A DNA stretch of 64,000 nucleotides from Acetomicrobium hydrogeniformans (GCA_016841745.1 JAENYO010000004.1:82026-146025); one strand, 5' to 3'. Positions 9,694-29,671 are shown, numbered from the stretch's first letter. Program-made: numbers and translations. Notes: generated by a model not told the origin, from the letters alone.

Positions 9694-12600
9694 CTATTCC
9701 TTTGGAAACAGGTTTTTCAGGATGCCTTCGAGGAACTGTTCCTTAAGCTGCTCACCCGTTTCATCGTCTTTTTTACTGCCCCCTGGACCGACGGGGAAAT
9801 TAAGCCTGATGGTGATCTGGTTGTTGTTTATCTTTTGTCTGTCCTTTTCCGAGTCTTCCATTTGCAGAAGATCCTGCAGGTATTCCTGCCCCCCTTCAAC
9901 TTTCAGATTCTTTATCTCGGGAGAGGCCCTGTTTCCTCCTATTTCAAAGTTTATGGTCCGAAAGTCCTTTCGTTTAATTCCAGTAAGGCTTCCAAGAATA
10001 TCTTTGACCAGGTCTCCCTGGGAGAGAACAGTTTTTAATGCGATCTGGAGGGTCCCCATAAAGGCATTGAAAGCCTGGATATTTACCTCTGCAGATCCCT
10101 TTAGATCGAGATCTCCGTCGTACTGGATGTTTCCATCCACCTCTATCTGCCGGTAGAGAGGGTATTTCCGGGGAGCTTCCACCCGGCTTCCTCCGAGGAT
10201 GGTAAGGCCGAACCCGTCTGCGAGGAAGTTGCTTCTCAGCTTCTGAAACCTGATCCTCTCTTCCCCTGCTGTAGCGGCGGCGGCCTTTATGGCCGGAATT
10301 CCTCCTATATCCCCTTCCCGTATTTCAAGAACACCGTATCCGAAAAAGCCGTAGGGGTTGAAGCCCCTTCCCTTGAATTTAACATCAAAAAAGGTTTTTC
10401 CCGTCAATTTCTGCGAAAGGGCGGGGATGGATTCTGTCGCCTTGCCCAGATCCAGGTCTACTCCCTTAAGGGACATATGCCATGCCAGATCGTCAAGGTC
10501 AATTCCCATGTCTCCGGATACTGTCCCTTCGAAACTTTTTATTTTCATTCCCTTTATCTCTGCTTTGTTTGCGGTTATGTCCAGGGGGATATCCATGCTT
10601 TCCAGGGGAAAGTCCTGAATAAGCAGAGCCCGGGAACTGATATTTCCTTCGCCGTTCAATTTACCCTTCGTAAAATTTCCCTGGATCTGCATGTCTATAT
10701 TGCCGGAAATATCGACAGAGCATGCTTCTTCCTCTCTGGGAAGAAGATAGGCCAGGTCCAGATCACTGCCTACAAGGTTGAAATAGATATCTGTCCCTTT
10801 CTCCAGGAGCATGAGGGACATGCCTCCCGTAAGAAGACCTTCTCCCACTTTTACATTGAGACTGGTTATGTCTATTTTTTTTCTTGAGGCGCTTCCCCTG
10901 AGATCTATGGATCTCAGCACAGCACAGCCGGAAGAGACAAGGGGAGATAATGCCTGGAAGGAAATCTTTGGGTCGGAGGGTGATCCCTTTATGGTGATGG
11001 TTCCTTCTGTAGTTCCCTTTGTAACAGGAAGGCCTGTAAAGGGGAGATCCTCCAGTTCCAGGTTTTTGAAAGATGCCTTGAGGTCAAGAAGGGGGGAGGG
11101 TGCAGTAATGATCTTGCCAGCGGCAGTAAATTCCCCATCAAGAATGGATGTGCTGATGTCCCGTATGATCAGGTCAGGAGCCTTCCATGAAATGTTGGCA
11201 TTTACATCCTGCAGGACCATATCGCTTATTGTGGCGAGGGGAGTGGATATCTCGAGGAGAGGTTCTTCCTGCCCCTTTATGGAAGCCTTTGCCTCGATGG
11301 TTTCGGCCTTTACAAGGTCTCCCATTCTAAACTGCCTGCCCTGTAAAGTTCCTTCAATGAGGAGGTTCTTGAGTGGTCCTCTGATAGAAGCCTTCAGGTC
11401 TGCCTTTCCTTTTAGATCTTCCGGCGGTGATGGGACCAGACGGGCGGCCCTTTCAAGATCCAGGTTTTTTCCGGAGATCCCGAGATCCAGAACGGGAGAA
11501 GTGAATATGGACAGGATCTTTCCGCTTCCGGTTAATTCTCCTCCCAGCATTTTTGCATATAGCCTGTCCAGGTTCATGGTACCCTTTGCGACCGAAAAGA
11601 AAATGCTGAAATCATCAAAGGGTTCCTTCCTGATACTGAATTTCCTGGATGAAAGGGAACCCTTTATTGCGGGATCCTTTATATTTCCTCTGAGTTCAAG
11701 GGATAATGCCATTGAACCCTCAGGTTCGAGCGCAGAGAGTGACGGAGCCATCCTTGGGAGAATTGCGAGGTCAATGACCGGGGCTTTGAGGCTGAACTCC
11801 ATGGCGGGTTCTTTCGACAGGTCCAAAGTCCCCCCGGCCTGTGCCTCTGTTCCTGACCATGAGAGGGATGAATCCAGAAGGATCTTCTTTCCTTCCAGAA
11901 GGATATTGAGTTTCATGGAATCGAATTTCTGTCCCGAAATAGAGAAACCTCCTGAAGCGAGGTCCATTCTTCCCGTTAACCATGGAAGTTTCCCAGATAC
12001 ATCCAGCTGGAGGTTGTCTATCCTGCCATTCATTTCGGGGATGGCCATTTTCAGTTCTGATGCCTTTGACAGGTCCAGGTCCCTGCCTTGTGCCTTTATC
12101 TTCAGTTCTCCCTCTGTGTTTATGGAAAGGTCCCCTTCGATCCTGCTTCCCAGGATCTCATTAACCATCTCATCAATTTTGAAGGCATTCTGTGCAAAGG
12201 ACCATCGGCCGGATATGGAACCGATCGACTTTCCTCCTATTTCTCCTCCTGCCAGGGAAAATGTCCCTCCTGCCTCGGGTTCGGCCGGAGTGCCCTTTCC
12301 ATAGAGGGTGGAACTGAAGATCCCCTTTGCGTCCATAAATCTTTCATCCAGGCTGCTAAGGCCGGACAGGTCCAGACTCTCCACAGTTCCGGTTATATCC
12401 ATTAGGGGACTTATGTCACCCGAAAGGACGATGCGTCCCTCCTTACCCAGGTCGAACATGCCTTTGGCGAGATGGATCCTGTCTCCCATTTCAAGAATTG
12501 TTTCGATTTTCCATGGCAGGGTGTCGACTCTGCCGGACAGGTCCAGATCTACTGTTTCTGAGCTATATAATATTCTCCCCCTGTCAGCAAGGATCTGATG

Positions 12601-15977: not shown

Positions 15978-18098
15978 ATGTTTACATCGGGCCGCAGGTT
16001 TTCCCTTTATCTTTTTTTACTGGTAATGATCTTTCTTTCGTCTTCCCTTCTTCTGGTTTACCGGCCCCTTCAGGTAGAGCTGAAGATGAGCCTGGAGCAG
16101 AATTTCGCAGGTAAGGCAGACAATTCCCTCATAATCCTGGACAACTCCATCCAGGATTTCATCCAGAATGCCAAGACCCTTTCAAGCAGGACGGCTATCC
16201 GTCAGAAGGCCTATTCCTTCATCAGGGGAGAGGCATCTCTTGAAGATCTTGTTTCTTTTTCTCTTCCAAGATGGATAGAAGGTGTGGAGACTCTCAAGGG
16301 TGCTGTCTTTGCCACCAGGCGTATTGCCGGTAACGAGATAGCAAACTACGGAGAAAGACCCCCATCCCTGCCTTCTATGTCCACGAAATGCCGGGAGACA
16401 CTTGTTGAATATTTACGTTACGGCGGCAGAACAGGTGTCAGTGTCTGCACTCCCATTTACGAAGAGGATGATCTTCTCGGTTATGACCTGGTCCTCTTCG
16501 ATCTTTCTTCTGTTCTGGAGAGGATCCGGAAAGACAATATCCATTATCGTCTGATCCTCAAGGACGAACCTGTTTATGAAGATGCTCTTCAGCACCTGGG
16601 CAGTATGGTTGCAGAAAATGACCGGGATGAGGAGGTTATAGCCTTTTACAGGGCGGTGACCGGATCCGGACTTCTACTCAGGGCTTCCATACCGGGTGCG
16701 GAACTTTACAGTTACAGCAGGGCCCTTGCTCGAAAGTTCACCCTCTGGTTCGCTGCTTTTACGGTCCTCCTGACCCTTGGGCTGACCTTCCTTGTCCAGA
16801 AAAGGAATATGGGGCAGATAAGGATGATGAAGGACCTCCAGGTAAAGTTGTCCGAGAACGAAGCCCGGTTCCGGCTCCTTTTTGACAAAGGGTCCGATGC
16901 CATCCTTGTGAACCATATTTCCCAGGATGGCGAGGTGAGCACCTTCATAGAGGCAAACGACATTGCCTGCCAGTTCCTTGGCTATACACGGGAAGAGCTG
17001 CTTGAACTGACTCCACTCAATGTCCTTGTTCCTGAATATGAAAATACTGTTGCCATAATAAGGGAAAAACTGATGCTTAATGGAATGGCCCTGGCTGAAA
17101 TAACTGCCCTTGCCAAGAACGGAAAGAGAATACCCGGAGAGATAAATGCTCATCTATTCAACCTTAACGGCAAACCAACGGTCCTTTCCATAATCAGGGA
17201 TATTACAGAACGAAAGTCTTCGGAAAAAACGCTGAGAGATAGTGAGCGGCGCTATGCAAGCCTTTTTCATGAAAATGAGGCAGTTATGCTTCTTGTGGAT
17301 CCTGAAACAGGTCTTATCCGGGATGCTAACCCGGCCGCCTGTTCATTCTATGACTATGACTATGATGATCTCATCGGATTCAGATTCTCTGATATAACAC
17401 CTGGTACAGATAGTTCTGACCCTTCCGATCAGCTGAACCAGGTAAATCTGGGGACAAAAAAGCATTTTTATCTTGAAAATATGACGTCATCGGGAATAGT
17501 GCATAATGTTGAGATCTACAGTACAAAGCTTTTCTTTGATAACAGGTCTGTTCTTCTTCTTATGGTCCATGATATTTCTGAAAAAGTAAGGGCTGAGGAA
17601 AGGGCGAAAAGGCTGAATGATGAACTTCTGGCAATTTCCACCACAGATAAGCTGACGGGAGTAAACAACAGAAGGCATCTGGAAGAGATACTTCAATGGG
17701 AACTGAACAAATCAAGACGCTATGGTGATAACCTGTCACTGATAATGTTCGACCTTGACGGATTCAAGGCAGTCAATGATCGTTACGGACACTCCAGGGG
17801 AGACGAAGTCCTGAAGCAGATCGCCAGGAAATGTGTCTCCAATCTGAGGAGTTCCGACTTCTTCGGCAGATGGGGAGGGGATGAATTCCTGGTGATTACA
17901 CCTGTTTCGGAGGATAGTGCTTTATTTCTTGCGAAAAAACTGCTTATCATCATGAAGGAATCAGACCTTGGTGTTACGGCGAGTATGGGTGTAACTGGTT
18001 TCCACCAGGGAGACTCTTTAAGTTCCCTTCTTGAGAGGGCCGACAAGTCCATGTATGCTGCAAAGCAGCAGGGAGGAGACAGATATATCCTTTCCTGA
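15978..18098 (+). CDS. Membrane sensor diguanylate cyclase (periplasmic domain, 2 PAS, GGDEF)
   Basis: 706 aa. It has an N-terminal TM segment, a second TM near residue 255, PAS regions and RSSDFFGRWGGDEF (RxxD I-site plus GGDEF). Confidence 0.85.
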   Translation: MFTSGRRFSLYLFLLVMIFLSSSLLLVYRPLQVELKMSLEQNFAGKADNSLIILDNSIQDFIQNAKTLSSRTAIRQKAYSFIRGEASLEDLVSFSLPRWIEGVETLKGAVFATRRIAGNEIANYGERPPSLPSMSTKCRETLVEYLRYGGRTGVSVCTPIYEEDDLLGYDLVLFDLSSVLERIRKDNIHYRLILKDEPVYEDALQHLGSMVAENDRDEEVIAFYRAVTGSGLLLRASIPGAELYSYSRALARKFTLWFAAFTVLLTLGLTFLVQKRNMGQIRMMKDLQVKLSENEARFRLLFDKGSDAILVNHISQDGEVSTFIEANDIACQFLGYTREELLELTPLNVLVPEYENTVAIIREKLMLNGMALAEITALAKNGKRIPGEINAHLFNLNGKPTVLSIIRDITERKSSEKTLRDSERRYASLFHENEAVMLLVDPETGLIRDANPAACSFYDYDYDDLIGFRFSDITPGTDSSDPSDQLNQVNLGTKKHFYLENMTSSGIVHNVEIYSTKLFFDNRSVLLLMVHDISEKVRAEERAKRLNDELLAISTTDKLTGVNNRRHLEEILQWELNKSRRYGDNLSLIMFDLDGFKAVNDRYGHSRGDEVLKQIARKCVSNLRSSDFFGRWGGDEFLVITPVSEDSALFLAKKLLIIMKESDLGVTASMGVTGFHQGDSLSSLLERADKSMYAAKQQGGDRYILS

Positions 18099-18233
18099 TA
18101 GTGTGCCCCTCAGGATGATTTATATATAAAGTTTCTCGGGACCTTCTTGTTTCCACGGGTCCCAATTCTTTTAGTTCTTAAGACCTATATGTTTTAGTGC
18201 CATTGATATCTGTACTATGGTTCACAGGGGACT

Positions 18234-19988
18234 ATGCTCCCTATTCAGAATATCTATACTTTTAGCTGTGATAGAAATAAATTTATTCTGGAGGGACACA
18301 TGGAATCTGATATTAAGTTTTCCGTAAACGAAGTGGAGAAACAGGAAGGTAATATTTCCGTTACTCAACGTTTACTTATAGAGACTCTTCTAAATAACCT
18401 GCATGATGGTGTGAGGGTAATGGATCGAGAACTCAACGTTATCAGGGTAAACCAGGTGTCCATGAAAAAACACGGTTTATCTGAAGTTCCCGAGAAAGAA
18501 AAATGTTACAGGATCTTCAAAGGCAGAAGTGGTCCTTGTCAGGGATGTCCCTGTATTGTCAGTCTGGAGAAGGGGATCATGGAGAGAAGTATCATGGAGT
18601 GTAACAGTGTAAATGGTCCTACGCTGAATGAAGTTTCTTCTTTTCCAATTGTGGAAGAAGATGGCTCCATATGGGGCGTCATTGAAATTGCAAAGGACAT
18701 TACCGAACAGAAAACACTCCAGGACAAGCTCAAAAAGGAAAAGGAAAAATACAAGGAGCTTTTTGATAACAGCGATAATGCCATTTTCATCCAGATCCTG
18801 AAAGAGGGAAATCTTTCAGAGGAGCTCATGGAAGTGAACAGAATGGCCTGTGAACGTTATGGATACACAAGGGATGAGTTCCTGGCTATGTCGGCTATGG
18901 ACATAGCCATCCCTGAATACCACCCGCTGTTAAAGGAGATGCTAAGTAAAGTCTGGTCAGGTCAGAAGGTAGTGGAACAGCTCTATCACAGGAAACGAAA
19001 CGGTGAGGTTTTTCCTGTGGAGGTTGAAATAAGACCTTATGACCTGGAGGGCAGTGCCGGGATCATCTTCTTTGCCAGGGATATTTCAGGTAAATTTGAG
19101 ACGCGGGATGCTCTCGAGAGCATGGAGAGGCTTTATGCGAATCTTTTTCGGAATAATCACGCTGTAATGCTTGTTATCGATCCTGAAAAGGGAGATCTTA
19201 AAGATGCGAATCCAGCGGCCTGCCGTTACTACGGCTATTCACGGAAAGAAATGCTCCGGTTGAAAGGATGGGATCTCAATGCCCTTTCCGAAAAGGATCA
19301 GCAGGAGGCTATGAGCAAGGCCAAGTCTGGAGAGCAGGAGTTCTTTCAGTTCAAGCACAGGCTGAGCAATGGAGAAACAAGGGATGTTGAGGTCTATACA
19401 GGGCCCATAGAAATGGATGGGAAAAAATACCTTTATTCCATAGTTCATGATATTACAGAAAGAATACTGGCTGAAGAAGCTGCCCACAGGCTCACTACGG
19501 AACTTCTCAAGGCTTCCAGAAAGGATAAACTTACGGGTATTTTCAACAGGGCCTATTTTGAAGAAACCCTTATGCGGGAGATAGATAAGGCCAGGAGATA
19601 CCAGACATGTCTTTCCCTCATAATGTTCGATCTCGACAATTACAAGGAGATAAATGATTCCCTGGGTCACATGGCAGGAGATATGGTCCTTAAAAGGGTT
19701 GCCGAGTCAGTAAATACAAATGTTCGAAAGTCGGATTACCTTGTCAGGTGGGGAGGGGACGAATTCATGATCCTTACTCCCATGAGGCTGCCCAGTGCCT
19801 TGAAACTTGCCGAGAAACTCAGGGGCGTAATTGAAAAACTGGATTGTGGAGTGACTGCCAGTTTCGGAACGGCGGAATTCAGTCGGGAAGATACCATAGA
19901 TCAGCTAACCAGAAGGGTCGACAGAGCCCTTTACCAGGCCAAGGCAAAGGGAAAAAATACTATATCAACCTATGAAGAACCTCTCTGA
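18234..19988 (+). CDS. Cytoplasmic multi-PAS diguanylate cyclase (GGDEF)
   Basis: 584 aa. It carries RKSDYLVRWGGDEF. The C-terminal PAS-GGDEF half is paralogous to the preceding gene. An alternative start is ATG 18300, behind GGAGGG. Confidence 0.85.
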   Translation: MLPIQNIYTFSCDRNKFILEGHMESDIKFSVNEVEKQEGNISVTQRLLIETLLNNLHDGVRVMDRELNVIRVNQVSMKKHGLSEVPEKEKCYRIFKGRSGPCQGCPCIVSLEKGIMERSIMECNSVNGPTLNEVSSFPIVEEDGSIWGVIEIAKDITEQKTLQDKLKKEKEKYKELFDNSDNAIFIQILKEGNLSEELMEVNRMACERYGYTRDEFLAMSAMDIAIPEYHPLLKEMLSKVWSGQKVVEQLYHRKRNGEVFPVEVEIRPYDLEGSAGIIFFARDISGKFETRDALESMERLYANLFRNNHAVMLVIDPEKGDLKDANPAACRYYGYSRKEMLRLKGWDLNALSEKDQQEAMSKAKSGEQEFFQFKHRLSNGETRDVEVYTGPIEMDGKKYLYSIVHDITERILAEEAAHRLTTELLKASRKDKLTGIFNRAYFEETLMREIDKARRYQTCLSLIMFDLDNYKEINDSLGHMAGDMVLKRVAESVNTNVRKSDYLVRWGGDEFMILTPMRLPSALKLAEKLRGVIEKLDCGVTASFGTAEFSREDTIDQLTRRVDRALYQAKAKGKNTISTYEEPL

Positions 19989-20014: not shown

Positions 20015-21229
20015 TCATGCGAGACTGCCTGCAAAGTTCATCCATTTCTTGAGGGATTTAGTCACCAGGAAGTTTTCCCGGACATGCTGATAGGCTCTTT
20101 CTCCCATCTGACACCTTGTATCTACACATGATAGAAGGGTGCATATATGCTGGGCTGCTTCAACGTAGGACTTGACTCTGTAACCGTTATACTCGTGATC
20201 TATCTGAAGGCGGATCCCTCCAGTATCTCCACCGATGACGGGTTTTCTCTTCCACAATGCCTCTGACACTGTCAGGCCGAAGCCTTCCCGGAGAGATTTC
20301 TGCAGGACCACGGTGGCCGCCCTCTGAAGGGCATTTATGGTCAGGTGTGCATCCGGTGGGAGAAGGAGAATGTGGATGTCTTCATCTCCGCCAGACTCCC
20401 TGTAGACTTCCTCCAGCACCTTCTGACCTTCGGGGTCGTCATCGGCGCCACCTCCAGCCAGAACCAGCTGAACATCGGGGAATTCCTTTTTTACAAGTCT
20501 ATAGGCACGTATAACTCCTATGGGATCTTTGAAGTAGTCGTAACGGGATACCTGCAGCATGACAGGTCTGCAGACGTCTATGTCGAAATCGCGGCAGACC
20601 CTTGCTACAAGCAGGATATCCATCAGAGCGTTTTTAGGGCTCAGTGGATCTATGGAAGGACAGATAATCTTCTGGTGGTGGGGCATGGGTTTCAGGAATT
20701 CTTCCATGGAAAAAACGCTGGCATCGTATCCCTCGACCCATCCGCTTACAAAATCCCACACTTCGGGATGGGGGGTAGCCGCATCAATATGACAACGCCA
20801 GATCCATTTCCCCTTCCGGTTATCACAGAAATGCAGGAGTGATGCCGGCTGAGGATCGTGAATGATAACCAGGTCAGCGTTCTCAAGCTTGTTTTTCAAC
20901 CTCTCTGCATTCTGGCGGCCGGTCTCCTCGAAGTTATTCTTCATAAGAGGTGTGAATTCGACGGGGTTACCCTGAAGGCCGTTATGTATGGTCTTGGTGG
21001 CATGGTAAAATTCCTGGTTCCCTTCCATTACCTCCCAGGAGCATTTCATACCAAGTTCATTCATGAGGGGAACAAAACTATTCAGAAGTTCTGCTACACC
21101 TCCGCCCTGTTTTGTTGAATTTACATGGACTATTTCCTTCCCTCTGAAGGGGCTGGCCAGGTCATAGAGTTCCTGGACCTCTTTTTCTCCTACTATTGAC
21201 CCGTACCTGGAAAGAAGATGGGACTGCAT
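20015..21229 (-). CDS. GT4 glycosyltransferase, TreT-like (trehalose glycosyltransferring synthase family)
   Basis: 404 aa. The N-terminus (IVHVNSTKQGGGVAELLNSFVPLMNELGMKCSWEVMEGNQEFYHATKTIHNGLQG) matches the TreT signature as I recall it. The C-terminal half is a GT1/GT4-type domain. Confidence 0.7.
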   Translation of the reverse strand: MQSHLLSRYGSIVGEKEVQELYDLASPFRGKEIVHVNSTKQGGGVAELLNSFVPLMNELGMKCSWEVMEGNQEFYHATKTIHNGLQGNPVEFTPLMKNNFEETGRQNAERLKNKLENADLVIIHDPQPASLLHFCDNRKGKWIWRCHIDAATPHPEVWDFVSGWVEGYDASVFSMEEFLKPMPHHQKIICPSIDPLSPKNALMDILLVARVCRDFDIDVCRPVMLQVSRYDYFKDPIGVIRAYRLVKKEFPDVQLVLAGGGADDDPEGQKVLEEVYRESGGDEDIHILLLPPDAHLTINALQRAATVVLQKSLREGFGLTVSEALWKRKPVIGGDTGGIRLQIDHEYNGYRVKSYVEAAQHICTLLSCVDTRCQMGERAYQHVRENFLVTKSLKKWMNFAGSLA

Positions 21230-21409
21230 CTGATCACGTCCTGTTCAAAATTATTTTTAGATGGATGCGTTGTGAAGATCGTGAGAACAGCAGGTCACGC
21301 TATATGGTCCAATGTTCTGGAACGATACCAGATGTGGGTATCTAACACCCTGGGAGGGTGTCTGTCAATAGGGGTAAATTAACCAGGGAAAGTATTCTGT
21401 CGATTTTTT

Positions 21410-23593
21410 TCAATTGCCTATGATAACAATTCCAAGATGGCCGTCAACTGTAAGCCTTTTTCCCGTCGAGATTATATCCACGGCGCCGGGTATTCCCGTA
21501 ACACAGGGGAGGCCGTATTCCCTTGCGATTATGGCTCCATGAATGAGCATGCCCCCCCTTCTTTCCACTATGGCCGAGGCAAGGGGAACTACGAAGGTCA
21601 TGTTGGGTTCTATGGCATCACAGACAAGTATCTCCCCTTTTTTAAATTCAAAGAGATCCCCATCGTGACGGATCACCCGGGCTGTTCCTGTTGCTATCCC
21701 GGGACTGGCGGGCTGTCCCTTCACCTGTCTTACCCTTATCTCCACGGCAGACGTAATTTCCGGAACCGTATCCTGGCCTGGATCCGGGGAAGGAGGCATG
21801 TAGTCCGGATCATCGAGGGCTCTGGCCACATCTCCTGCTTCCCTGTAAAGATCAGGATCCTTTCGGTTCATCTTCTGAATCCTTCTTTTACCTTCTGAAG
21901 AAGCTCTTTCGACCTCGACCTTAATTCTTGCAAGGTATATGTTGTCGTTATCTCTCAGTTTCCAGCTGGCCCTTCCAAGTTCCAGAAGATCCTGTGCCAG
22001 AAGTCTTTCCTTTCCCTGGAAACTGGCAAGATACCTGTCCTTCATATTCGAGGTCTTTTTTCCCTTCTCCTCATGTGAGGAAGGCGGAGAATCTGCCATC
22101 TCAAGGATGAGCTGAATGATCCTTCCGGATATGAGATCAGGCTCTGATGAGCCCGGTATGGTTTCGTAGGCAGTTACAAATCCCTGGACCTTTGCCAGAA
22201 AGGGGGCCGGGATATCAAGACCCTTACCCAGTTTTTCCCTGAGGGGCCCGTCCCTTCGTATCTCCTCTGCCAGATCTTCCAGAACTGTATTTCGGGCGAT
22301 ACTTGTCATTTCGGTACCTACAAGCAGGTCTACGAACTCGTAGGGGTCCTTAGGGGTCATCCTGTCGTTGTAAAACTGGCCGAAGAGCCTGGCCCCATGA
22401 GCAAAGGGAATGAAATCATCCCAGTAGACCTTTTCCCATTTTTCCAACACTGAAAGACGGTCTGTTATTTCCCGGGACAATTCATTATCTGTAAGGGGGA
22501 TAAGGTCCATTTTCTTGAACTTCAGTGCATCTTCATCCATCGCTGGAAGGAGAGTTGTTTCTATCCTTTCCCGAAGTCCCTTGAGATTATCCAGGCTTCT
22601 GGTGAGGGAAAGATACCAGGATCTCCTGTCTTCTCCAGCCTTGCCTATGGTTGTGACAGGCCTTGACTGAAGAAGGTAGGTCCTGTTTCCTCTTATGGTC
22701 CATTCCATGTCCTGGGGTGCAAGGAAAATATCCTCCACTCTCATTCCCAGTTTTAAAAGTTTTTCTGCTTCCTGGTCGGAAAGGGGGGGTGTCTTCGACC
22801 TCTCGTCATCAAGAGTCATTATCATGGTTCCATCTGTAGAGGGGATGACTATCCTGTCTCTCTGAGATGGAGGTGTATGGGATATGGTTTTGCCTGTTTC
22901 TCTCAGGAAGAACCATCTGTCAGGTTCAACCGTTCCATCCACAAAACCCTGGTTAAGCCCCCATACTGCCTCAAGTATGGAATTATGGCTGTTGTCTGGA
23001 GCTTCGGTAAATGCGACTCCGGACCTCTCTCCTTTTATGATCTCCTGTATAACCACAGCCATAGTGCTTTTATGTACATCAAGGCCGAGTTCCCTGCGGT
23101 AAAGGATGGCCCCGTCGGACCAGAGGGAAGCCCATACCCTCCGTACTGCAGCGATTATGTCCCTCCTGCCCCTGACATTGACTACTGATTCATGTAGACC
23201 TGCAAAGGAAGTGGCTGCAGAGTCTTCAGAGGGGGCGGAAGAACGGACAACAGTTGGAGATGTTCCGAAATAATAAAGGATATTTTTCTCCAGAAGTGAT
23301 GCTATCTCTGGAGGCATTTTCATTCTGAGGAAATGGTTCCTTATCCTCAGAGAAACATCCCAGATCTCCTCCCATCGCATCTCCTCGAAGGACTTTCTGT
23401 TAAGTTCCAGCTGGACTATGTCCTCAAGACCTGTCTGATGGATAAAAAGCCTGTAGACTTCAGATGTGATGCATATACCTTCAGGTACATTTATCCCTTC
23501 CTGAAGGAGTCTTGATAAAGCCCATGCCTTGCCGCCAGCCAGGGGACGATCTCCCGCTGTTATCTCAGCAAGGGGAATTATCATTTTCATCAT
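21410..23593 (-). CDS. PEP-utilising-enzyme family phosphotransferase: N-terminal PPDK_N ATP-grasp, central helical region, C-terminal swivel phospho-His domain; no PEP/pyruvate TIM barrel
   Basis: 727 aa. The N-terminus reads RPLAGGKAWALSRLLQEGINVPEGICIT. The C-terminus reads GTARVIRHDGDLFEFKKGEILVCD...ERRGGMLIHGAIIAREYGLPCVTG, a swivel-His motif. Confidence 0.8.
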   Translation of the reverse strand: MMKMIIPLAEITAGDRPLAGGKAWALSRLLQEGINVPEGICITSEVYRLFIHQTGLEDIVQLELNRKSFEEMRWEEIWDVSLRIRNHFLRMKMPPEIASLLEKNILYYFGTSPTVVRSSAPSEDSAATSFAGLHESVVNVRGRRDIIAAVRRVWASLWSDGAILYRRELGLDVHKSTMAVVIQEIIKGERSGVAFTEAPDNSHNSILEAVWGLNQGFVDGTVEPDRWFFLRETGKTISHTPPSQRDRIVIPSTDGTMIMTLDDERSKTPPLSDQEAEKLLKLGMRVEDIFLAPQDMEWTIRGNRTYLLQSRPVTTIGKAGEDRRSWYLSLTRSLDNLKGLRERIETTLLPAMDEDALKFKKMDLIPLTDNELSREITDRLSVLEKWEKVYWDDFIPFAHGARLFGQFYNDRMTPKDPYEFVDLLVGTEMTSIARNTVLEDLAEEIRRDGPLREKLGKGLDIPAPFLAKVQGFVTAYETIPGSSEPDLISGRIIQLILEMADSPPSSHEEKGKKTSNMKDRYLASFQGKERLLAQDLLELGRASWKLRDNDNIYLARIKVEVERASSEGKRRIQKMNRKDPDLYREAGDVARALDDPDYMPPSPDPGQDTVPEITSAVEIRVRQVKGQPASPGIATGTARVIRHDGDLFEFKKGEILVCDAIEPNMTFVVPLASAIVERRGGMLIHGAIIAREYGLPCVTGIPGAVDIISTGKRLTVDGHLGIVIIGN

Positions 23594-24047
23594 GAAAGAT
23601 CACTTCCCTGACGTTCTGGAAATGGCTCACAAGGATATACCTGTGTACATGGATCTTTATGGTGGCGGTGGTGGGGGAAGAGAGAAAGTCTTCCAGATAG
23701 GGATGCCTTGCTGTCATAAGGGAAAGGGCCAGATCCTTTTCTTCTTCCCCGAGTTCCTCTGATCTTCCGATGACAGTGACAGCCTTTGCCTGAAAAAGGT
23801 CGTCAACCCTGTTCGTTCTATTATCAACAAGCATGGATACCATGTTGTGGGAACTTATATTGGAATATTTTCTTGTGGCCCTGGTGGTAGCAAAAAATAT
23901 GTGTCTCAGATCATCTGAAAAAGTGTAAGAAACGATATTGGTATAGGGTCCCATTTCTCCTTCGGTTGCCAGTACGGCAAGTTTCTGTCTTTCCAGTAGA
24001 GCCGCTATTTCCTTTATTATGGGTCCGGTCTGACATCCATCTCCCAT
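23565..24047 (-). CDS. Pyridoxamine 5'-phosphate oxidase-like FMN-binding split-barrel protein
   Basis: 160 aa (LAVLATEGEMGPYTNIVSYTFSDDLRHIFFATTRATRKYSNI). Its end overlaps the downstream phosphotransferase start by 29 nt. Confidence 0.7.
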   Translation of the reverse strand: MGDGCQTGPIIKEIAALLERQKLAVLATEGEMGPYTNIVSYTFSDDLRHIFFATTRATRKYSNISSHNMVSMLVDNRTNRVDDLFQAKAVTVIGRSEELGEEEKDLALSLMTARHPYLEDFLSSPTTATIKIHVHRYILVSHFQNVREVIFHDENDNSPC

Positions 24048-24331: not shown

Positions 24332-25048
24332 ATGCCAATGTTTGAGAGAGTGAATAAAAAGACCATATGCGAACAGGTAATAGACCAGATCAAAAACAGT
24401 ATAACCGCAGGTGATCTGACCCCAGGGGAAAAACTTCCCTCCGAACGGGCCCTTGCAGATTTTTTTTCAGTGAGCAGGGCAACTGTCAGAGAAGCCCTTA
24501 GAGCCCTTCAGTACATGGGGATCCTGGAGATACGAATGAACGACGGTGCATACCTCATGCAAGATATAAACCTCCTTTCGGACCAGGTGAAAACTTCTTA
24601 TCTGTTGAAACAGTTCACCCTCATGGAACTGCTTGAGGCTCGAAAATTTCTCGAAGTTGCCATTGTGTCCCTGGCAGCGGAACGTGCATCGCCGGAACAG
24701 ATCCGATACCTTGAAAAGATCTACAATGAAGAGGTTAAACACCAGGGGGACAGGAAAAAATTCATTAAGGCTGATGTCACTTTTCACATGGCCCTTGCCG
24801 ATGCATGCCAGAACAGTTTTTTTCGAAAAATGATCGAGCCGGTGCGGGAACTGCTGGAAGAATCGAACGAGGGTCAGTACGAAAAGATCAGGCAGATAGA
24901 GATAACCCTGGATTACCATCGGCGGATCCTTGAGGCAGTAAAGAATGGAGACCCTGAAAAGGCATCAGGGATCATGGGAAAACATCTTGAAAATATAGTC
25001 AGGACTACCAGCGAAGTCTACAGAAACAAACTTGCCCGGGAAAGGTAA
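24332..25048 (+). CDS. GntR-family regulator, FadR/FCD subfamily
   Basis: 238 aa with a wHTH (LPSERALADFFSVSRATVREALRALQYMGILE) and a helical FCD effector domain. Confidence 0.85.
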   Translation: MPMFERVNKKTICEQVIDQIKNSITAGDLTPGEKLPSERALADFFSVSRATVREALRALQYMGILEIRMNDGAYLMQDINLLSDQVKTSYLLKQFTLMELLEARKFLEVAIVSLAAERASPEQIRYLEKIYNEEVKHQGDRKKFIKADVTFHMALADACQNSFFRKMIEPVRELLEESNEGQYEKIRQIEITLDYHRRILEAVKNGDPEKASGIMGKHLENIVRTTSEVYRNKLARER

Positions 25049-25098
25049 AACTGCAATATGAGATCATTTTCCCGAGTTCCATATTTTGAAAAGAAGGG

Positions 25099-26589
25099 GT
25101 GAAAATATTGACTGTTTCCTTGATTGACAAAACAAAAGGGTATCTTACCCTGAAGATAATCAAACGGATCGCGGACAGGATCCGAAGAGGAGAATCAGGG
25201 GAAGTGGCGGATCTCTTTGAATCACTGGCAAAGATAGCTCCGGCGAAATATCACAGGGAAAGTTTTAAACTTCTTGCCGGAAAGATCAGAAATGACGATC
25301 CCTTCGCACAGCCCTTCCTCAGAATGATCAGGGAGCTCAGTCCCCATTGTCTGCAGAAGTTTATGCAGAACGTATTTGTGAACTTCATGGTCATGGGAAG
25401 GGGGATCAGGGACAGAAAGTCCCGAGAGCTGGGAGTTCATCTTCCGAACTTTATGGTCATAAGCCCTACCATGAAGTGCAATCTGCACTGTAAGGGCTGT
25501 TATGCTGCCGAATATGACCAGAACCAGGACCTTCCCTATGAGGTCTTCGACAGGCTCCTTGGGGAAGGGAAATCCCTCGGAATGTATTTTTATACTTTAA
25601 GCGGGGGGGAAGTCCTTCTTTACCCACGAATCTTTGAACTCCTGGAGAAACACAATGACTGTTACTTCCAGTTCTATACCAACGGGACCCTTTTGACTGA
25701 GGAGATCGTGGACCGTCTTGCTGAACTGGGCAACGTAGCACCCATGATCTCCATTGAGGGAACTAAGGAACATACAGATTCCAGGAGGGGTCCTGGTGTA
25801 TATGAAAAAATGATAAGTGCCTATTCCCTGATGAAGGAAAGGGGAATGGTCTACGGTTTCAGTACCACCTTTACCAATGCCAATGCCGAATATATCACCA
25901 GTGATGGTTTCATTTCCCGAATGATAGATTTTGGATGCACCTTCGGCTGGATCTTCCAGTACATCCCCATTGGTGCGAAACCTGATCTTTCATACATGGC
26001 ATCTCCTCTCCAGCGTAATCAGCTGAGAGAGAAGGTTGCGGGCTGGAGAGAGAGCAAGGACTATCCCATCCTCTTTGGAGATTTCTGGAATGATGGTCCA
26101 TACGTGGATGGATGCATGGCTGGAGGAAGAAGATACTGGCATGTCATTCACAGCGGAATGGTTGAACCCTGTGTCTTCGTTCCCTTTGCAGTGGATAACG
26201 TAAAGGAAAAGAGTATCGCCGAAATAGCGGCCAGTCCCTTTTTTAAAGCCATTCGTGAATCCCAGCCCTACGATGATGACGATCTTCTCCGTCCATGCAT
26301 GATCATAGATCATCCGGAAGTATTGAGAGACCTTGTCCGAAAATATGGAGCCAGACCCTGTCACCCCGGTCTTGAGGCAATGCTTGAGGGAAAAGTGGCA
26401 GAGGGTCTCGACAGGTATGCTGAGAAACTTAAGGCGATTTACGATCCTGTATGGGATGAAAGCTGGAGAGCCAGGTACTGGAAAAGTCTTGAAAGGGAGG
26501 AAGATTCCTATACCCTTGAAAAGGCGAGAAAACATTTTCCCGCAACATGTGAAGGCTGCAGTCGCCAATGGGCCGGTTGCAATAAATAA
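25099..26589 (+). CDS. Radical SAM enzyme with C-terminal SPASM/twitch-like Cys motifs; function unknown
   Basis: 496 aa. It has the CNLHCKGCYA (CxxxCxxC) motif, YTLSGGEVLL and FYTNGTLL. The later CMAGGRRYWHVIHSGMVEPCVFVPF resembles the CxAG...G.v.PC auxiliary-cluster motif. The tail has extra Cys residues (CEGCSRQWAGC). Confidence 0.8.
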   Translation: MKILTVSLIDKTKGYLTLKIIKRIADRIRRGESGEVADLFESLAKIAPAKYHRESFKLLAGKIRNDDPFAQPFLRMIRELSPHCLQKFMQNVFVNFMVMGRGIRDRKSRELGVHLPNFMVISPTMKCNLHCKGCYAAEYDQNQDLPYEVFDRLLGEGKSLGMYFYTLSGGEVLLYPRIFELLEKHNDCYFQFYTNGTLLTEEIVDRLAELGNVAPMISIEGTKEHTDSRRGPGVYEKMISAYSLMKERGMVYGFSTTFTNANAEYITSDGFISRMIDFGCTFGWIFQYIPIGAKPDLSYMASPLQRNQLREKVAGWRESKDYPILFGDFWNDGPYVDGCMAGGRRYWHVIHSGMVEPCVFVPFAVDNVKEKSIAEIAASPFFKAIRESQPYDDDDLLRPCMIIDHPEVLRDLVRKYGARPCHPGLEAMLEGKVAEGLDRYAEKLKAIYDPVWDESWRARYWKSLEREEDSYTLEKARKHFPATCEGCSRQWAGCNK

Positions 26590-26610
26590 TTCAGTATATG
26601 AAGATAGTCA

Positions 26611-26642
26611 GGGGTATGTCCTCCCGGGGCATACCTTTTTTT
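26611..26642 (+). terminator. Intrinsic terminator after the radical SAM gene
   Basis: GGGGTATG-tcctcccgggg-CATACCtt followed by T7. Confidence 0.6.
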
Positions 26643-26752
26643 AATGGAGAGAATTGTCTGACTGTTGTTATGAAGTGTTTTCTGCTATGCTTTTACAAAT
26701 TTCCAGCATCGTACCAGGAGATAAAACTGCTTTTTACAAGGGAGGTACTTCC

Positions 26753-27982
26753 ATGGTGAGAGTCGAAAGAATAAGAAAAGATCTGGAATTTCTGGCCGGG
26801 ATAACGTCAACCCCGGGAGAAGGTGTTACGAGGCTTGCTTTCAGTGCTGAAGAGACTCGGGCAAGGGAATATCTGCGGAAAGAGATGGAGGCCGCAGGTC
26901 TTGAAATATATCAGGATAATGCCGGCAATCTTTTCGGAAGAAGGGAAGGCACTCTGAAGGATGCCCCTGTGGTCATGTTCGGTTCCCACATAGATTCAGT
27001 TGTCAACGGAGGTGCTTTTGACGGTCCAGCCGGTGTTATTTCGGCCCTGGAAGCCTTAAGGGTTATAAATGAAGAGGGCATGGAAACTGTCAATCCCCTG
27101 GAAATGGTCGTGATGACGGAGGAAGAGGGAGGCCGTTTTGGCTCAGGGGTCTGGGGAAGCAGGGCTATGGCAGGTATTGTTTCTGAAGATGAAATATATA
27201 AGGGAACCGATTCCCTGGGAATAACAAAGGCTGAAGCTATGGAATCCTTTGGACTCGATCCTGCATCAGTTGGTAAGGCCAGGCGGGAGCAAGGCAGCAT
27301 AAAGGCTTTTCTGGAATTACATATAGAGCAGGGGCCAGTTCTGGAACAGAATGGCTGTGACGCAGGTATAGTCGAGTCTATTGTGGGGATAAGGACTTTC
27401 TTTGTAACGGTAAAAGGTAAGGCAGATCACGCCGGAACCACCCCTATGGATTTCAGAAGGGATGCTCTGGTCGGAGCGAGCAGGGTGATCTCCGAGATCG
27501 ACGCCATAGCCCGAAGGGCCGGTAAGGGAACAGTGGCCACGGTGGGAATGGTGAATGTCAGGCCGGGGGCCTTTAACATTGTCCCGGAGGAAGTGCAGTT
27601 CAGCATAGATCTTCGTGACAGTTCCGAGCCGGTTATTGAAGCTGCCGCTTCTGAAATAAAAAAATACCTTGAGGAGCAGTGCTCTTCCCGGGGACTTGCT
27701 TTTTCATGGGAAGAACGTCTTTCTATCTCTCCCGTCAGGATAGATCCCGGGATAATGTCCATATTCCAGGAGGTTGCAGCAGAAAAGAATATTTCCACCC
27801 ATGTAATGCCGAGCGGTGCGGGCCATGATGCCATGGTGATGGCCAGGGTGGCGCCGGTTGGAATGATATTTGTTCCAAGCAGGAATGGTAAAAGTCACTG
27901 TCCTGAAGAGTGGACCGATTATGATCAGGTCGCCAGGGGTGCGGAAATGATCCTTGGAGCGGTAATAAGGCTTGCAGATTAA
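26753..27982 (+). CDS. M20-family N-carbamoyl-amino-acid / beta-ureidopropionase / allantoate amidohydrolase-type hydrolase
   Basis: The start is ATG 26753, 7 nt after GGGAGG (the track ORF starts earlier, at 26654). MVRVERIRKDLEFLAGITSTPGEGVTRLAFS, GSHIDSVVNGGAFDGPAGV and EEEGGRFG are typical of the AmaB/HyuC/AllC clade. Confidence 0.8.
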   Translation: MVRVERIRKDLEFLAGITSTPGEGVTRLAFSAEETRAREYLRKEMEAAGLEIYQDNAGNLFGRREGTLKDAPVVMFGSHIDSVVNGGAFDGPAGVISALEALRVINEEGMETVNPLEMVVMTEEEGGRFGSGVWGSRAMAGIVSEDEIYKGTDSLGITKAEAMESFGLDPASVGKARREQGSIKAFLELHIEQGPVLEQNGCDAGIVESIVGIRTFFVTVKGKADHAGTTPMDFRRDALVGASRVISEIDAIARRAGKGTVATVGMVNVRPGAFNIVPEEVQFSIDLRDSSEPVIEAAASEIKKYLEEQCSSRGLAFSWEERLSISPVRIDPGIMSIFQEVAAEKNISTHVMPSGAGHDAMVMARVAPVGMIFVPSRNGKSHCPEEWTDYDQVARGAEMILGAVIRLAD

Positions 27983-28001
27983 TATTTAATTCTTCAATGT
28001 A

Positions 28002-28050
28002 AAAGGCAAAGAAGCAGGGAGGTATGTCTTTCCTGTCTCTTTGCCTTTTT
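28002..28050 (+). terminator. Intrinsic terminator
   Basis: AAAGGCAAAGA...TCTTTGCCTTT followed by TTT. Confidence 0.6.
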
Positions 28051-28299
28051 TCCGGGGAGTCAAAGCTGTTATTATCCTTCAGGTGATTCCCTATCCTTTC
28101 CCGGATGGATCCCTCCCTCTTTTTTGCCTGGGTCCGGAGGTTCTTCTTTGAGTATTCCTGTTATAAATTGCAGGTATTATGAAAAATATTACAGGGATAT
28201 TGTATTATTGTTACGCGCGGAAGAACAAATAATTCAGGTTTCTCTGTTATCAGACAGTTTATAGCTATTGAGATCATCATATCCGGGGAGGTCTTTCAG

Positions 28300-28470
28300 A
28301 TGGAATTCTTTGCTGACAATATAGCACCCATTATCCTTTACCTATGCGCCGCAATTATGTTTTTTATGGGACTGAGGCGATTTAGATATGGTCAGCCCGT
28401 GAAGGGACTCGCAAATATTGCCCTGGCAGGAGTTATGGCCATAATGGGCTGGTACTTTGGCGGGATGTAG
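28300..28470 (+). CDS. Unlisted 56-aa two-TM membrane protein
   Basis: It falls below the ORF-track size cut-off. A GGGGAGG RBS lies 9 nt upstream of the ATG. The product is MEFFADNIAPIILYLCAAIMFFMGLRRFRYGQPVKGLANIALAGVMAIMGWYFGGM. A strong terminator follows. Confidence 0.55.
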   Translation: MEFFADNIAPIILYLCAAIMFFMGLRRFRYGQPVKGLANIALAGVMAIMGWYFGGM

Positions 28471-28489
28471 GGAAAGAGCATTCTGATTT

Positions 28490-28515
28490 AAAACCCGGCA
28501 TAAGCCGGGTTTTTC
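28490..28515 (+). terminator. Intrinsic terminator
   Basis: AAAACCCGGC-ataa-GCCGGGTTTT followed by TC. Confidence 0.75.
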
Positions 28516-28657
28516 TTTAAGGTATTTACTTCATCTAGATGACCTGCTAGTATAATCAAGTAGATTCTATTCTCATTTTTCCTCTCTTCCAGAATTATCC
28601 CGGATTTACAGTTATTTATTTTCGAACCATAACAGTTCTATAAAGGAGGTTGAAAAT

Positions 28658-29671
28658 ATGGTTGATCTGAAAACCAGTTATATGGGTATTGAACTGGATA
28701 ATCCCTTTGTTGTCGGAGCATGTGAAATGACTTCTCACGTTGAAACCCTTAAAAAGATCGAAGAAGCCGGGGCAGGTGCTATCGTGTTGAAGTCCCTTTT
28801 TGAGGAGCAGATCCAGCTTGAAAGACTTCAACTGGATGATTCTCTTACTGAATATGACGAAAGACATGCAGAAATGACAGGGATCCATCCACGTATGGAA
28901 CACTCAGGACCGGAAGAACACCTTTACTGGGTCAAAAAGAGCAGGGAGATAGTTGATATACCTTTAATTGCGAGCCTCAATGCCGTGAACAGGGAAATCT
29001 GGGTGGAATATGCCAAACTTCTTGAGAAGACCGGCGTAGACGGGCTGGAACTTAATTTCTATTCCAGTCCCACTGATCCGGACAGGGATGGTGCCCAGAT
29101 AGAGAAGGAGCAGATCGAGACCCTTTGCGAGATAAGGGAAAAAATATCTATCCCTGTGAGTGTAAAACTCAGTCCCTTTTATGCAAATCCCGTTAATTTG
29201 ATATCAAAGATGGATCTGGCAGGAGCCGGAGCCTTCGTTTTATTCAACCGTTTCTTCCAGCCAGACCTTGATATCGACAGGGAAGTCAATCTTCTGAACT
29301 TCGATCTGAGCTGCGAGGGAGATTACAAACTTCCATTGAGATTTACAGGACTTCTTTACGGGCAGATCCAGGGTGATATCTGTGCCAGCGGAGGAATATA
29401 TTCGGGCAGGGATGCGGCCAAGCTGATAATGGCAGGTGCTTCCTGCGTTCAGCTGGTAAGCGCCCTTTACAAGAGTAAACTTGAGCATTTAAGGTTTATC
29501 AGGAGGGAACTTATCAAATGGATGGAGGGTAAGAACCTTGACTCTCTTCAGGAATTCCGCGGAAGAATGAGCAAGAAGAACTTGTCCGACCCCTTCGCAT
29601 ATGAGCGGGCCCAGTACGTGGGAATGCTCATGAAACCCGACACTATAATTAAGCAGTTCCCCCAGTATTAG
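28658..29671 (+). CDS. Dihydroorotate-dehydrogenase-like FMN TIM-barrel protein (class-1-sized, no Fe-S extension)
   Basis: 337 aa. Matches include YMGIELDNPFVVGACEMT, GAGAIVLKS, LELNFYSSP (Ser where class 1 DHODs have the catalytic Cys) and ICASGGIYSGRDAAKLIMAGASCVQL. There is an AAGGAGG RBS. Confidence 0.75.
   Translation: MVDLKTSYMGIELDNPFVVGACEMTSHVETLKKIEEAGAGAIVLKSLFEEQIQLERLQLDDSLTEYDERHAEMTGIHPRMEHSGPEEHLYWVKKSREIVDIPLIASLNAVNREIWVEYAKLLEKTGVDGLELNFYSSPTDPDRDGAQIEKEQIETLCEIREKISIPVSVKLSPFYANPVNLISKMDLAGAGAFVLFNRFFQPDLDIDREVNLLNFDLSCEGDYKLPLRFTGLLYGQIQGDICASGGIYSGRDAAKLIMAGASCVQLVSALYKSKLEHLRFIRRELIKWMEGKNLDSLQEFRGRMSKKNLSDPFAYERAQYVGMLMKPDTIIKQFPQY

Follow-up and report, generated by a model that had tools for sequence, protein, structure and literature searches.

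Dikinases of the rifampin phosphotransferase (RPH) type are known from antibiotic inactivation, prodiginine synthesis and phenol activation. RPH itself, represented by RPH-Lm (structures 5FBS, 5FBT, 5FBU and 5HV1; family model NF041857), has an ATP-grasp domain, a helical substrate domain and a C-terminal swivel domain with its histidine, in that order, and its mechanism is set out in PMC4844700. PpsAB, CreHI and HpeHI share the RPH-type ATP-grasp, swivel and helical domains and relay phosphate through a phospho-His to a small-molecule hydroxyl, and are enzymes of two polypeptides encoded in aromatic catabolic clusters (PMC12167813). Here, we describe a related enzyme from a 64,000-nucleotide stretch of Acetomicrobium hydrogeniformans DNA (GCA_016841745.1, JAENYO010000004.1:82026-146025; hereafter the window), from the order Synergistales in the phylum Synergistota. 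Unlike PpsAB, CreHI and HpeHI, this kinase, P0002, is one chain of 727 amino acids (aa), and it has a PNPOx-like split-barrel protein of 160 aa, P0001, as its partner; the gene of a 404-aa TreT-family GT4 glycosyltransferase, P0003, follows. An earlier note on this DNA had coupled all three genes in one operon. That proposal survives in part: the kinase does have its true partner in the PNPOx-like gene (78/80 loci), but not in the TreT gene (0/80). With moderate confidence, we propose a two-gene cassette for ultraviolet (UV) and photo-oxidative stress that consists of the PNPOx-like protein and the RPH-type dikinase and to which TreT is incidental.

The kinase, its partner and their genomic company

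The three open reading frames (ORFs) are co-directional on the minus strand, with coordinates that agree exactly with those of the earlier note: 23565..24047 for P0001, 21410..23593 for P0002 and 20015..21229 for P0003. The first two overlap by 29 nt, or by 26 nt when Met2 of the kinase, the residue from which its orthologues align, is taken as the start, and an AGGAGG lies 9 nt ahead of the ATG of the PNPOx-like gene.

Pfam places a PPDK_N ATP-grasp nucleotide-binding domain at kinase residues 17-322 (PF01326, 242 bits; 22628..23545, minus strand) and a PEP-utilizers swivel domain at residues 650-721 (PF00391, 69 bits; 21431..21646, minus strand), and it finds neither a PEP/pyruvate TIM barrel in the protein nor any family on residues ~323-620, in agreement with the earlier description. 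P0002 shares PPDK_N at its N-terminus and a phospho-His swivel domain with PEP synthase and pyruvate phosphate dikinase, and differs from them in lacking the barrel and in its domain order. The ATP-grasp domain aligns with RPH-Lm residues 4-317, and G20, G21, K22, R117, S118, S119, Q294, D295, E297 and W298 are invariant among orthologues. The predicted carrier histidine, His685, is encoded at 21539-21541 (minus strand), where the motif RRGGMLIHGAII was confirmed on the DNA. It lies inside GGMLIHGAIIAREYG, a motif that is invariant in 14 of 14 orthologues and aligns with the RPH-Lm swivel domain, with which it has GG..H-GA-IAREYGLP in common. A full-length AlphaFold2 model (predicted local distance difference test, pLDDT, 75) has RPH-Lm 5hv1 as its best Foldseek match (E 1.4e-32), which bears out the RPH-like domain order suggested earlier, and HpeI (9goj) appears as a fold match for the ATP-grasp domain. 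The kinase is nevertheless far under the cut-offs of the NCBIfam models for PEP synthase, RPH, PigC and RedH, to which its terminal domains alone align; for the RPH equivalogs the scores are 263.7 bits vs a cut-off of 999 (NF041857) and 175.1 vs 1700 (NF000283). It belongs instead to a large, tight family of proteins of ~725 aa with ~50% full-length identity and hundreds of orthologues; a word-limited search returned 4514 matches. The anti-phage models of PADLOC matched none of the three proteins.

The earlier note did not recognise the central ~300 aa and suggested a fold search on them. We folded these 303 residues alone (320-622; 21728..22636, minus strand) from an alignment of 38 orthologues. 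The AlphaFold2 model is all-helical with a pLDDT of 88.6, and in Foldseek RPH entries rank top (TMq 0.50-0.65). VIA-align, which is independent of Foldseek, aligned 290 residues with 5hv1_A (Z 14.8; chain residues 379-791), the rifampin-binding domain of RPH, while the runner-up reached Z 10.5 over just 125 residues of generic spectrin-like bundles. Neighbours of the region in the ESM Atlas carry the Pfam domain PF27448, 'Rph_4th'. Sequence profiles of the domain against PDB sequences did not detect the RPH relation and gave nothing meaningful. Across the family, the domain is ~40% identical, with an invariant W, Y, IPxAH, R, YN and RDxDN. On the strength of these models, the central domain is a homologue of the rifampin-binding (second-substrate) domain, shortened to ~300 aa from ~440 aa in RPH.

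In species-representative genomes we detected at least 586 stretches related to the kinase, and 80 loci were retained with flanks of up to 8 kb. They span Desulfobacterota, Planctomycetota, Anaerolineales, Synergistota, Armatimonadota, WS1, Acidobacteriota, Methylococcales, Methanococcoides and Methanothrix. By tblastn, 78 of the 80 have a PNPOx-like gene as the immediate upstream neighbour of the kinase, and in most loci its stop overlaps the kinase start by 4 nt (ATGA). One exception is a contig that begins within the kinase and the other is L025. Our literature search found no report of the pair. Within the host phylum the kinase is patchy, occurring in 10/184 genomes. L025 (8001-10196) is the sole complete locus without the upstream gene; it is flanked by genes for a PIN-domain protein and an NTP_transf_8 nucleotidyltransferase, a context that looks like a toxin-antitoxin or mobile setting. 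The pair is also present in methanogens, on the chromosome of Methanococcoides sp. FTZ1 (L069), where a RudS-like gene lies upstream of it, and in a Methanothrix metagenome-assembled genome (L078). These kinases are 46-47% identical to the bacterial one, which suggests inter-domain transfer of the cassette.

P0001 matches PNPOx_N (PF01243), the split barrel also found in PdxH, with 48.4 bits against a cut-off of 28.1, and Pfam found no match to the C-terminal PNPOx domain. In 31 partner proteins the mean column identity is 48% and the motif T-x-x-x-T-R-K-x-x-N is invariant, with a T-R-K that we take to resemble the flavin mononucleotide (FMN)-phosphate motif of PdxH. The best matches of the partner profile to solved structures are PA4388 (2ARZ; E 9e-8), general stress protein 26 (GSP26, 3EC6; 1e-6) and HOZ/HugZ-like heme-binding proteins (9BL1 and 6M09; 1e-4), all of the PNPOx_N fold but distant. 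We know of no PA4388-, GSP26- or HOZ-type protein that pairs with a dikinase. True PNPOx and Rv1155 match weakly (E ~3e-3 to 7e-3; E. coli PdxH structures at ~6e-3 over ~50 residues), and the Nim 5-nitroimidazole reductase model NF000261 gives P0001 29.1 bits vs a cut-off of 260. From its motif and relatives, the partner is a predicted split-barrel protein that probably binds FMN, with a flavin as the most likely ligand and a tetrapyrrole as a possible one. As CofH was not found in the host's own genome, which is 99.6% complete, a deazaflavin (F0/F420) role is unsupported here. A complex prediction for the kinase and the PNPOx-like protein scored 0.02, which we take as neither for nor against binding.

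To describe the company of the pair, flanking ORFs of the 80 loci were clustered and the clusters annotated by Pfam. The most frequent was DUF523-DUF1722, the RudS-type tRNA 4-thiouridine desulfidase (22/80 loci), followed by NmrA/SDR-DUF2867 (21/80), a second PNPOx-like protein of 124 aa (18/80), PF00875 photolyase (13/80), the photolyase-related DPRP (11/80), AhpC and SOUL (6/80 each), and a CFA-synthase-like protein (CMAS) and DUF1295 (5/80 each). UvdE and MsrA are tight operon partners of the pair in 3 and 2 loci, respectively. RudS genes have been reported within light-responsive operons (PMC11417400). At least one light-type neighbour is found in 45 of the 80 loci, in several phyla, and in 29/47 of those that are at least 12 kb long. 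Photolyase-family genes number 24 in the 0.81 Mb of flanking DNA vs 2 in the 3.04 Mb of the own genome, a roughly 45-fold enrichment. Within the host phylum, PF00875 photolyase occurs in 8/10 kinase-positive genomes vs 28/174 others; the naive Fisher test (p = 4e-5) overstates this association, since the genomes are related and represent about five independent lineages, and we regard it as supportive and not decisive.

The neighbouring TreT gene

P0003 was correctly recognised as TreT-like. It carries the TreT N-terminal domain (PF21269, TreT_GT1; 188.2 bits, cut-off 27) followed by Glycos_transf_1 (PF00534, 77.6 bits), and its alignment with the TreTs (EC 2.4.1.245) of known structure extends over the full length, for those of Thermoproteus uzoniensis (6ZJ4, E 2.7e-119, residues 6-397) and Pyrococcus horikoshii (2X6Q, E 3e-104, residues 6-403). 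Unlike these it is a bacterial homologue, with activity and donor predicted from sequence, and it scores under the cut-off of the equivalog NF041139 TreT_Thcocales (378.5 bits vs 775), a model that by its name is specific to Thermococcales. It is a probable NDP-glucose:glucose trehalose synthase, an enzyme whose reaction is reviewed in PMC11046441. The same genome also encodes an OtsA-type GT20 trehalose-6-phosphate synthase (C10:112085-113488), unlinked to the cassette.

The earlier note proposed that kinase and TreT are functionally coupled, proposed a search for their phylogenetic co-occurrence, and named lack of conservation of the pairing past this genome as a finding that would speak against it. 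This is, in substance, what we find. TreT was not detected by tblastn within 8 kb of the kinase in any of the 80 orthologous loci, and among 31 related genomes the two genes do not co-occur as a rule and are adjacent in just the own genome (G000) and the same-genus genome G001, with 92% (kinase) and 96% (TreT) protein identity between the two. No TreT was found in two kinase genomes of the same family, nor in one further kinase-positive genome; in one related genome the kinase and TreT are on separate contigs, and at least 10 have TreT and no kinase. In the sister genus, G002, the genes run rSAM-GntR / PNPOx-kinase / MFS_3, and the last of them is convergent. The window has the same MFS_3 gene, separated there from the kinase by TreT and by a tandem pair of diguanylate cyclase genes of the PAS-GGDEF type (15978-19988, plus strand, convergent to TreT; 706 and 584 aa), from which we infer that TreT and the GGDEF genes are a genus-specific insertion or rearrangement. 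TreT is therefore an ordinary neighbour, which adjoins the cassette solely in this genus of Synergistota and lacks any conserved functional link with it.

The kinase and TreT are separated by a 180-nt spacer (21230..21409, minus strand) that is 91% identical to that of G001 and is distinguished from it by an 11-nt indel at 21299-21305; the metatranscriptome strain X5 has the G001-like form. A promoter-like TTGACG-16-TATCAT lies at 21447-21420, within the kinase 3' end, and matches 10/12 positions. In a promoter and terminator scan, however, site counts did not exceed those of shuffled sequences, and a TreT promoter is thus not established. In one study of marine sediment, two metatranscriptome libraries gave RNA contigs from close strains of ~95% identity. 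These contigs span TreT, the spacer, the kinase and the PNPOx gene, and end in the 24.0-24.3 kb promoter region, where a DNA run continues. The spacer is bridged by one contig in each library and so is transcribed, although these contigs can neither tell read-through apart from initiation at a TreT promoter within the 3' end of the kinase nor prove a single transcript. Co-transcription of kinase and TreT is possible in this genus, as a local feature and not a conserved pathway.

Proposed function and rival explanations

Our preferred reading is that of a translationally coupled two-gene cassette in which a split-barrel protein is made together with a single-chain dikinase that would work like rifampin phosphotransferase. 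By analogy with RPH, PpsAB and HpeHI (PMC12167813 for the latter two), the ATP-grasp domain would bind ATP, His685 on the swivel domain would take up the beta-phosphate with release of AMP and inorganic phosphate (Pi), and the swivel domain would then carry the phosphate to the helical central domain, to be passed there to a small-molecule hydroxyl. Because its gene is an almost obligate partner, the flavoprotein would make, consume or present the small molecule on which the kinase acts. The recurrent photolyase, RudS, UvdE, MsrA, AhpC, CFA-synthase-like and DUF1295 neighbours point to a role in UV and photo-oxidative stress, mostly in anaerobic microbes. Both features separate the family from RPH, which has a resistance context and not this near-obligate flavoprotein partner. 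Locally, TreT may be read through from the cassette. More tentatively, we suggest that the pair could be an undescribed damage-control system of mostly anaerobic bacteria and archaea, a possibility that we consider doubtful. Flavoprotein and kinase would then act one after the other on a small molecule, harmful or damaged, that arises through light or UV. Candidate targets would include a flavin, pterin or B6 vitamer degraded by light and a redox-cycling quinone. Phosphorylation might trap, detoxify or recycle the molecule and so complement photolyase, UvdE and RudS at the chemical level.

Several observations weigh against the stress cassette. There is no light-type neighbour in 35/80 loci, and the own locus and six other Synergistota loci have no photolyase, DPRP, RudS, SDR-DUF2867, CMAS, DUF1295, SOUL or AhpC within ~8 kb. 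The photolyase-type genes of the own genome are on other contigs (PF00875 photolyase at C2:30303-30779 and DPRP at C14:171251-171907), and a DUF1722/RudS gene was not found in it. The case for a stress role is one of gene neighbourhood throughout. Flavin binding is argued from a motif together with remote relatives, and some of the nearest solved ones bind heme. Finally, the bridged spacer leaves room for local co-expression with TreT.

We have weighed four other explanations. That the kinase and TreT form one pathway towards a phosphorylated compatible solute, in which the dikinase phosphorylates trehalose, glucose or some other substrate or product of TreT, appears extremely improbable. The genes are co-directional with a gap of just 180 nt, the arrangement is retained in the same-genus genome, and the gap is bridged in both libraries of the metatranscriptome study; plant glucan water dikinases also show that dikinases can use sugars (PMC13553574). 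Against this, TreT is near the kinase in none of the 80 loci and shows no phyletic co-occurrence with it in the 31 relatives, and the G002 synteny indicates an insertion of TreT with the GGDEF genes. Moreover, a central domain that is ~40% identical across a family mostly without an adjacent TreT makes one shared substrate likelier. Quite unlikely is the inactivation of a xenobiotic or antibiotic, in which the kinase would act on a rifamycin-like or other hydroxylated toxin and the PNPOx-like protein would reduce the same compound or a related one, as a reductase of the Nim-like or quinone type. For all three kinase domains the closest homologue of known structure is RPH, there is weak similarity of the partner to the Nim and F420-dependent PPOX families, and the patchy distribution in the host phylum (10/184) fits an accessory gene. 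However, the scores against the RPH equivalogs are far too low (264 vs 999; 175 vs 1700), as is the Nim score (29 bits vs 260), the central domain is ~300 and not ~440 aa long with no similarity to RPH at the sequence level, and the neighbours are repair and oxidative-stress genes rather than efflux or resistance genes.

A kinase and a PNPOx-fold protein formally make up a vitamin B6 salvage pair, and the cassette could on these grounds be read as cofactor salvage or repair, in the manner of PdxK and PdxH or on a light-damaged flavin, pterin or quinone. The presumed likeness of the T-R-K motif to that of PdxH agrees with such a role, as does a light-damage gene context, which fits photolabile cofactors. 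We still judge it unlikely, given that P0001 has a generic PNPOx_N match and no C-terminal PNPOx domain, that true PNPOx structures match weakly (E ~6e-3), and that a deazaflavin version is unsupported here, as no CofH was found in a 99.6% complete genome. We also know of no precedent for an RPH-type kinase acting on B6 or flavins, which counts against it too. A role in aromatic catabolism is very unlikely. Here, the kinase would activate a phenolic growth substrate, as do its RPH homologues PpsAB (phenol), CreHI (4-methylphenol) and HpeHI (hydroxyphenylethanones), which phosphorylate phenolic hydroxyls (PMC12167813), and both the HpeI fold match to the ATP-grasp domain (9goj) and the many carriers that are anaerobic aromatic degraders, for example Desulfobacterota and Syntrophorhabdaceae, speak for it. 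The known phenolic dikinases are two-component enzymes whereas P0002 is a single chain, no carboxylase, decarboxylase or benzoyl-CoA pathway genes recur by the pair, and the pair is also present in methanogens and in small Synergistota genomes.

We see no new dikinase-trehalose pathway at this locus. The RPH-type subfamily of the kinase, with matches in at least 586 stretches of species-representative genomes, is tied to a flavoprotein and to UV and light repair genes. If the substrate is found, it would add a new chemical step to the handling of light and oxidative damage by anaerobes, and would correct the widespread annotation of this kinase family as 'PEP synthase / pyruvate, water dikinase'.

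Surrounding genes and further split-barrel proteins

Divergent from the pair lies a plus-strand gene for a GntR/FCD regulator (24332..25048; Pfam GntR and FCD). It is the first of a series at 24332-29671 that continues with a radical-SAM/SPASM protein (496 aa), an M20 peptidase and a DHO_dh-like protein, and that could be a small operon for a modified peptide or a metabolite. The order rSAM-GntR / PNPOx-kinase is retained in the same-genus G001 and in the sister genus G002. Synteny of the regulator with the pair is confined to this bacterial family, and the regulator is not recurrent among the 80 loci. The best-matching public runs for the window are marine sediment metagenomes.

Candidate fusions of the split-barrel domain were also considered. 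P0141 (813 aa), an apparent PNPOx-kinase fusion, was rejected as a frameshift-ridden, Arg/Pro-rich mistranslation, and the long open frames in L056, L075, G009 and G027 were set aside because they are out of frame with the PNPOx gene. In the predicted protein P0140 (406 aa; 7 member sequences from JGI), a PNPOx-like domain 45% identical to P0001 is attached to a C-terminal GT1 fragment. The glycosyltransferase part is unrelated to the TreT of the window (E 0.69). The protein may be a true fusion or an artefact of gene calling in a genome of high GC content.

Many Desulfobacterales loci have a second, divergent PNPOx-like gene of ~141-162 aa, 25-29% identical to P0001 and convergent just downstream of the kinase. 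It lies at 10309-10734 on the minus strand in L004 and is also present in L012, L014, L016, L017, L032, L033, L040, L041, L060, L074 and L077. These loci often have a third PNPOx-like gene (124 aa) upstream, which brings the number of split-barrel paralogues to as many as three per kinase.

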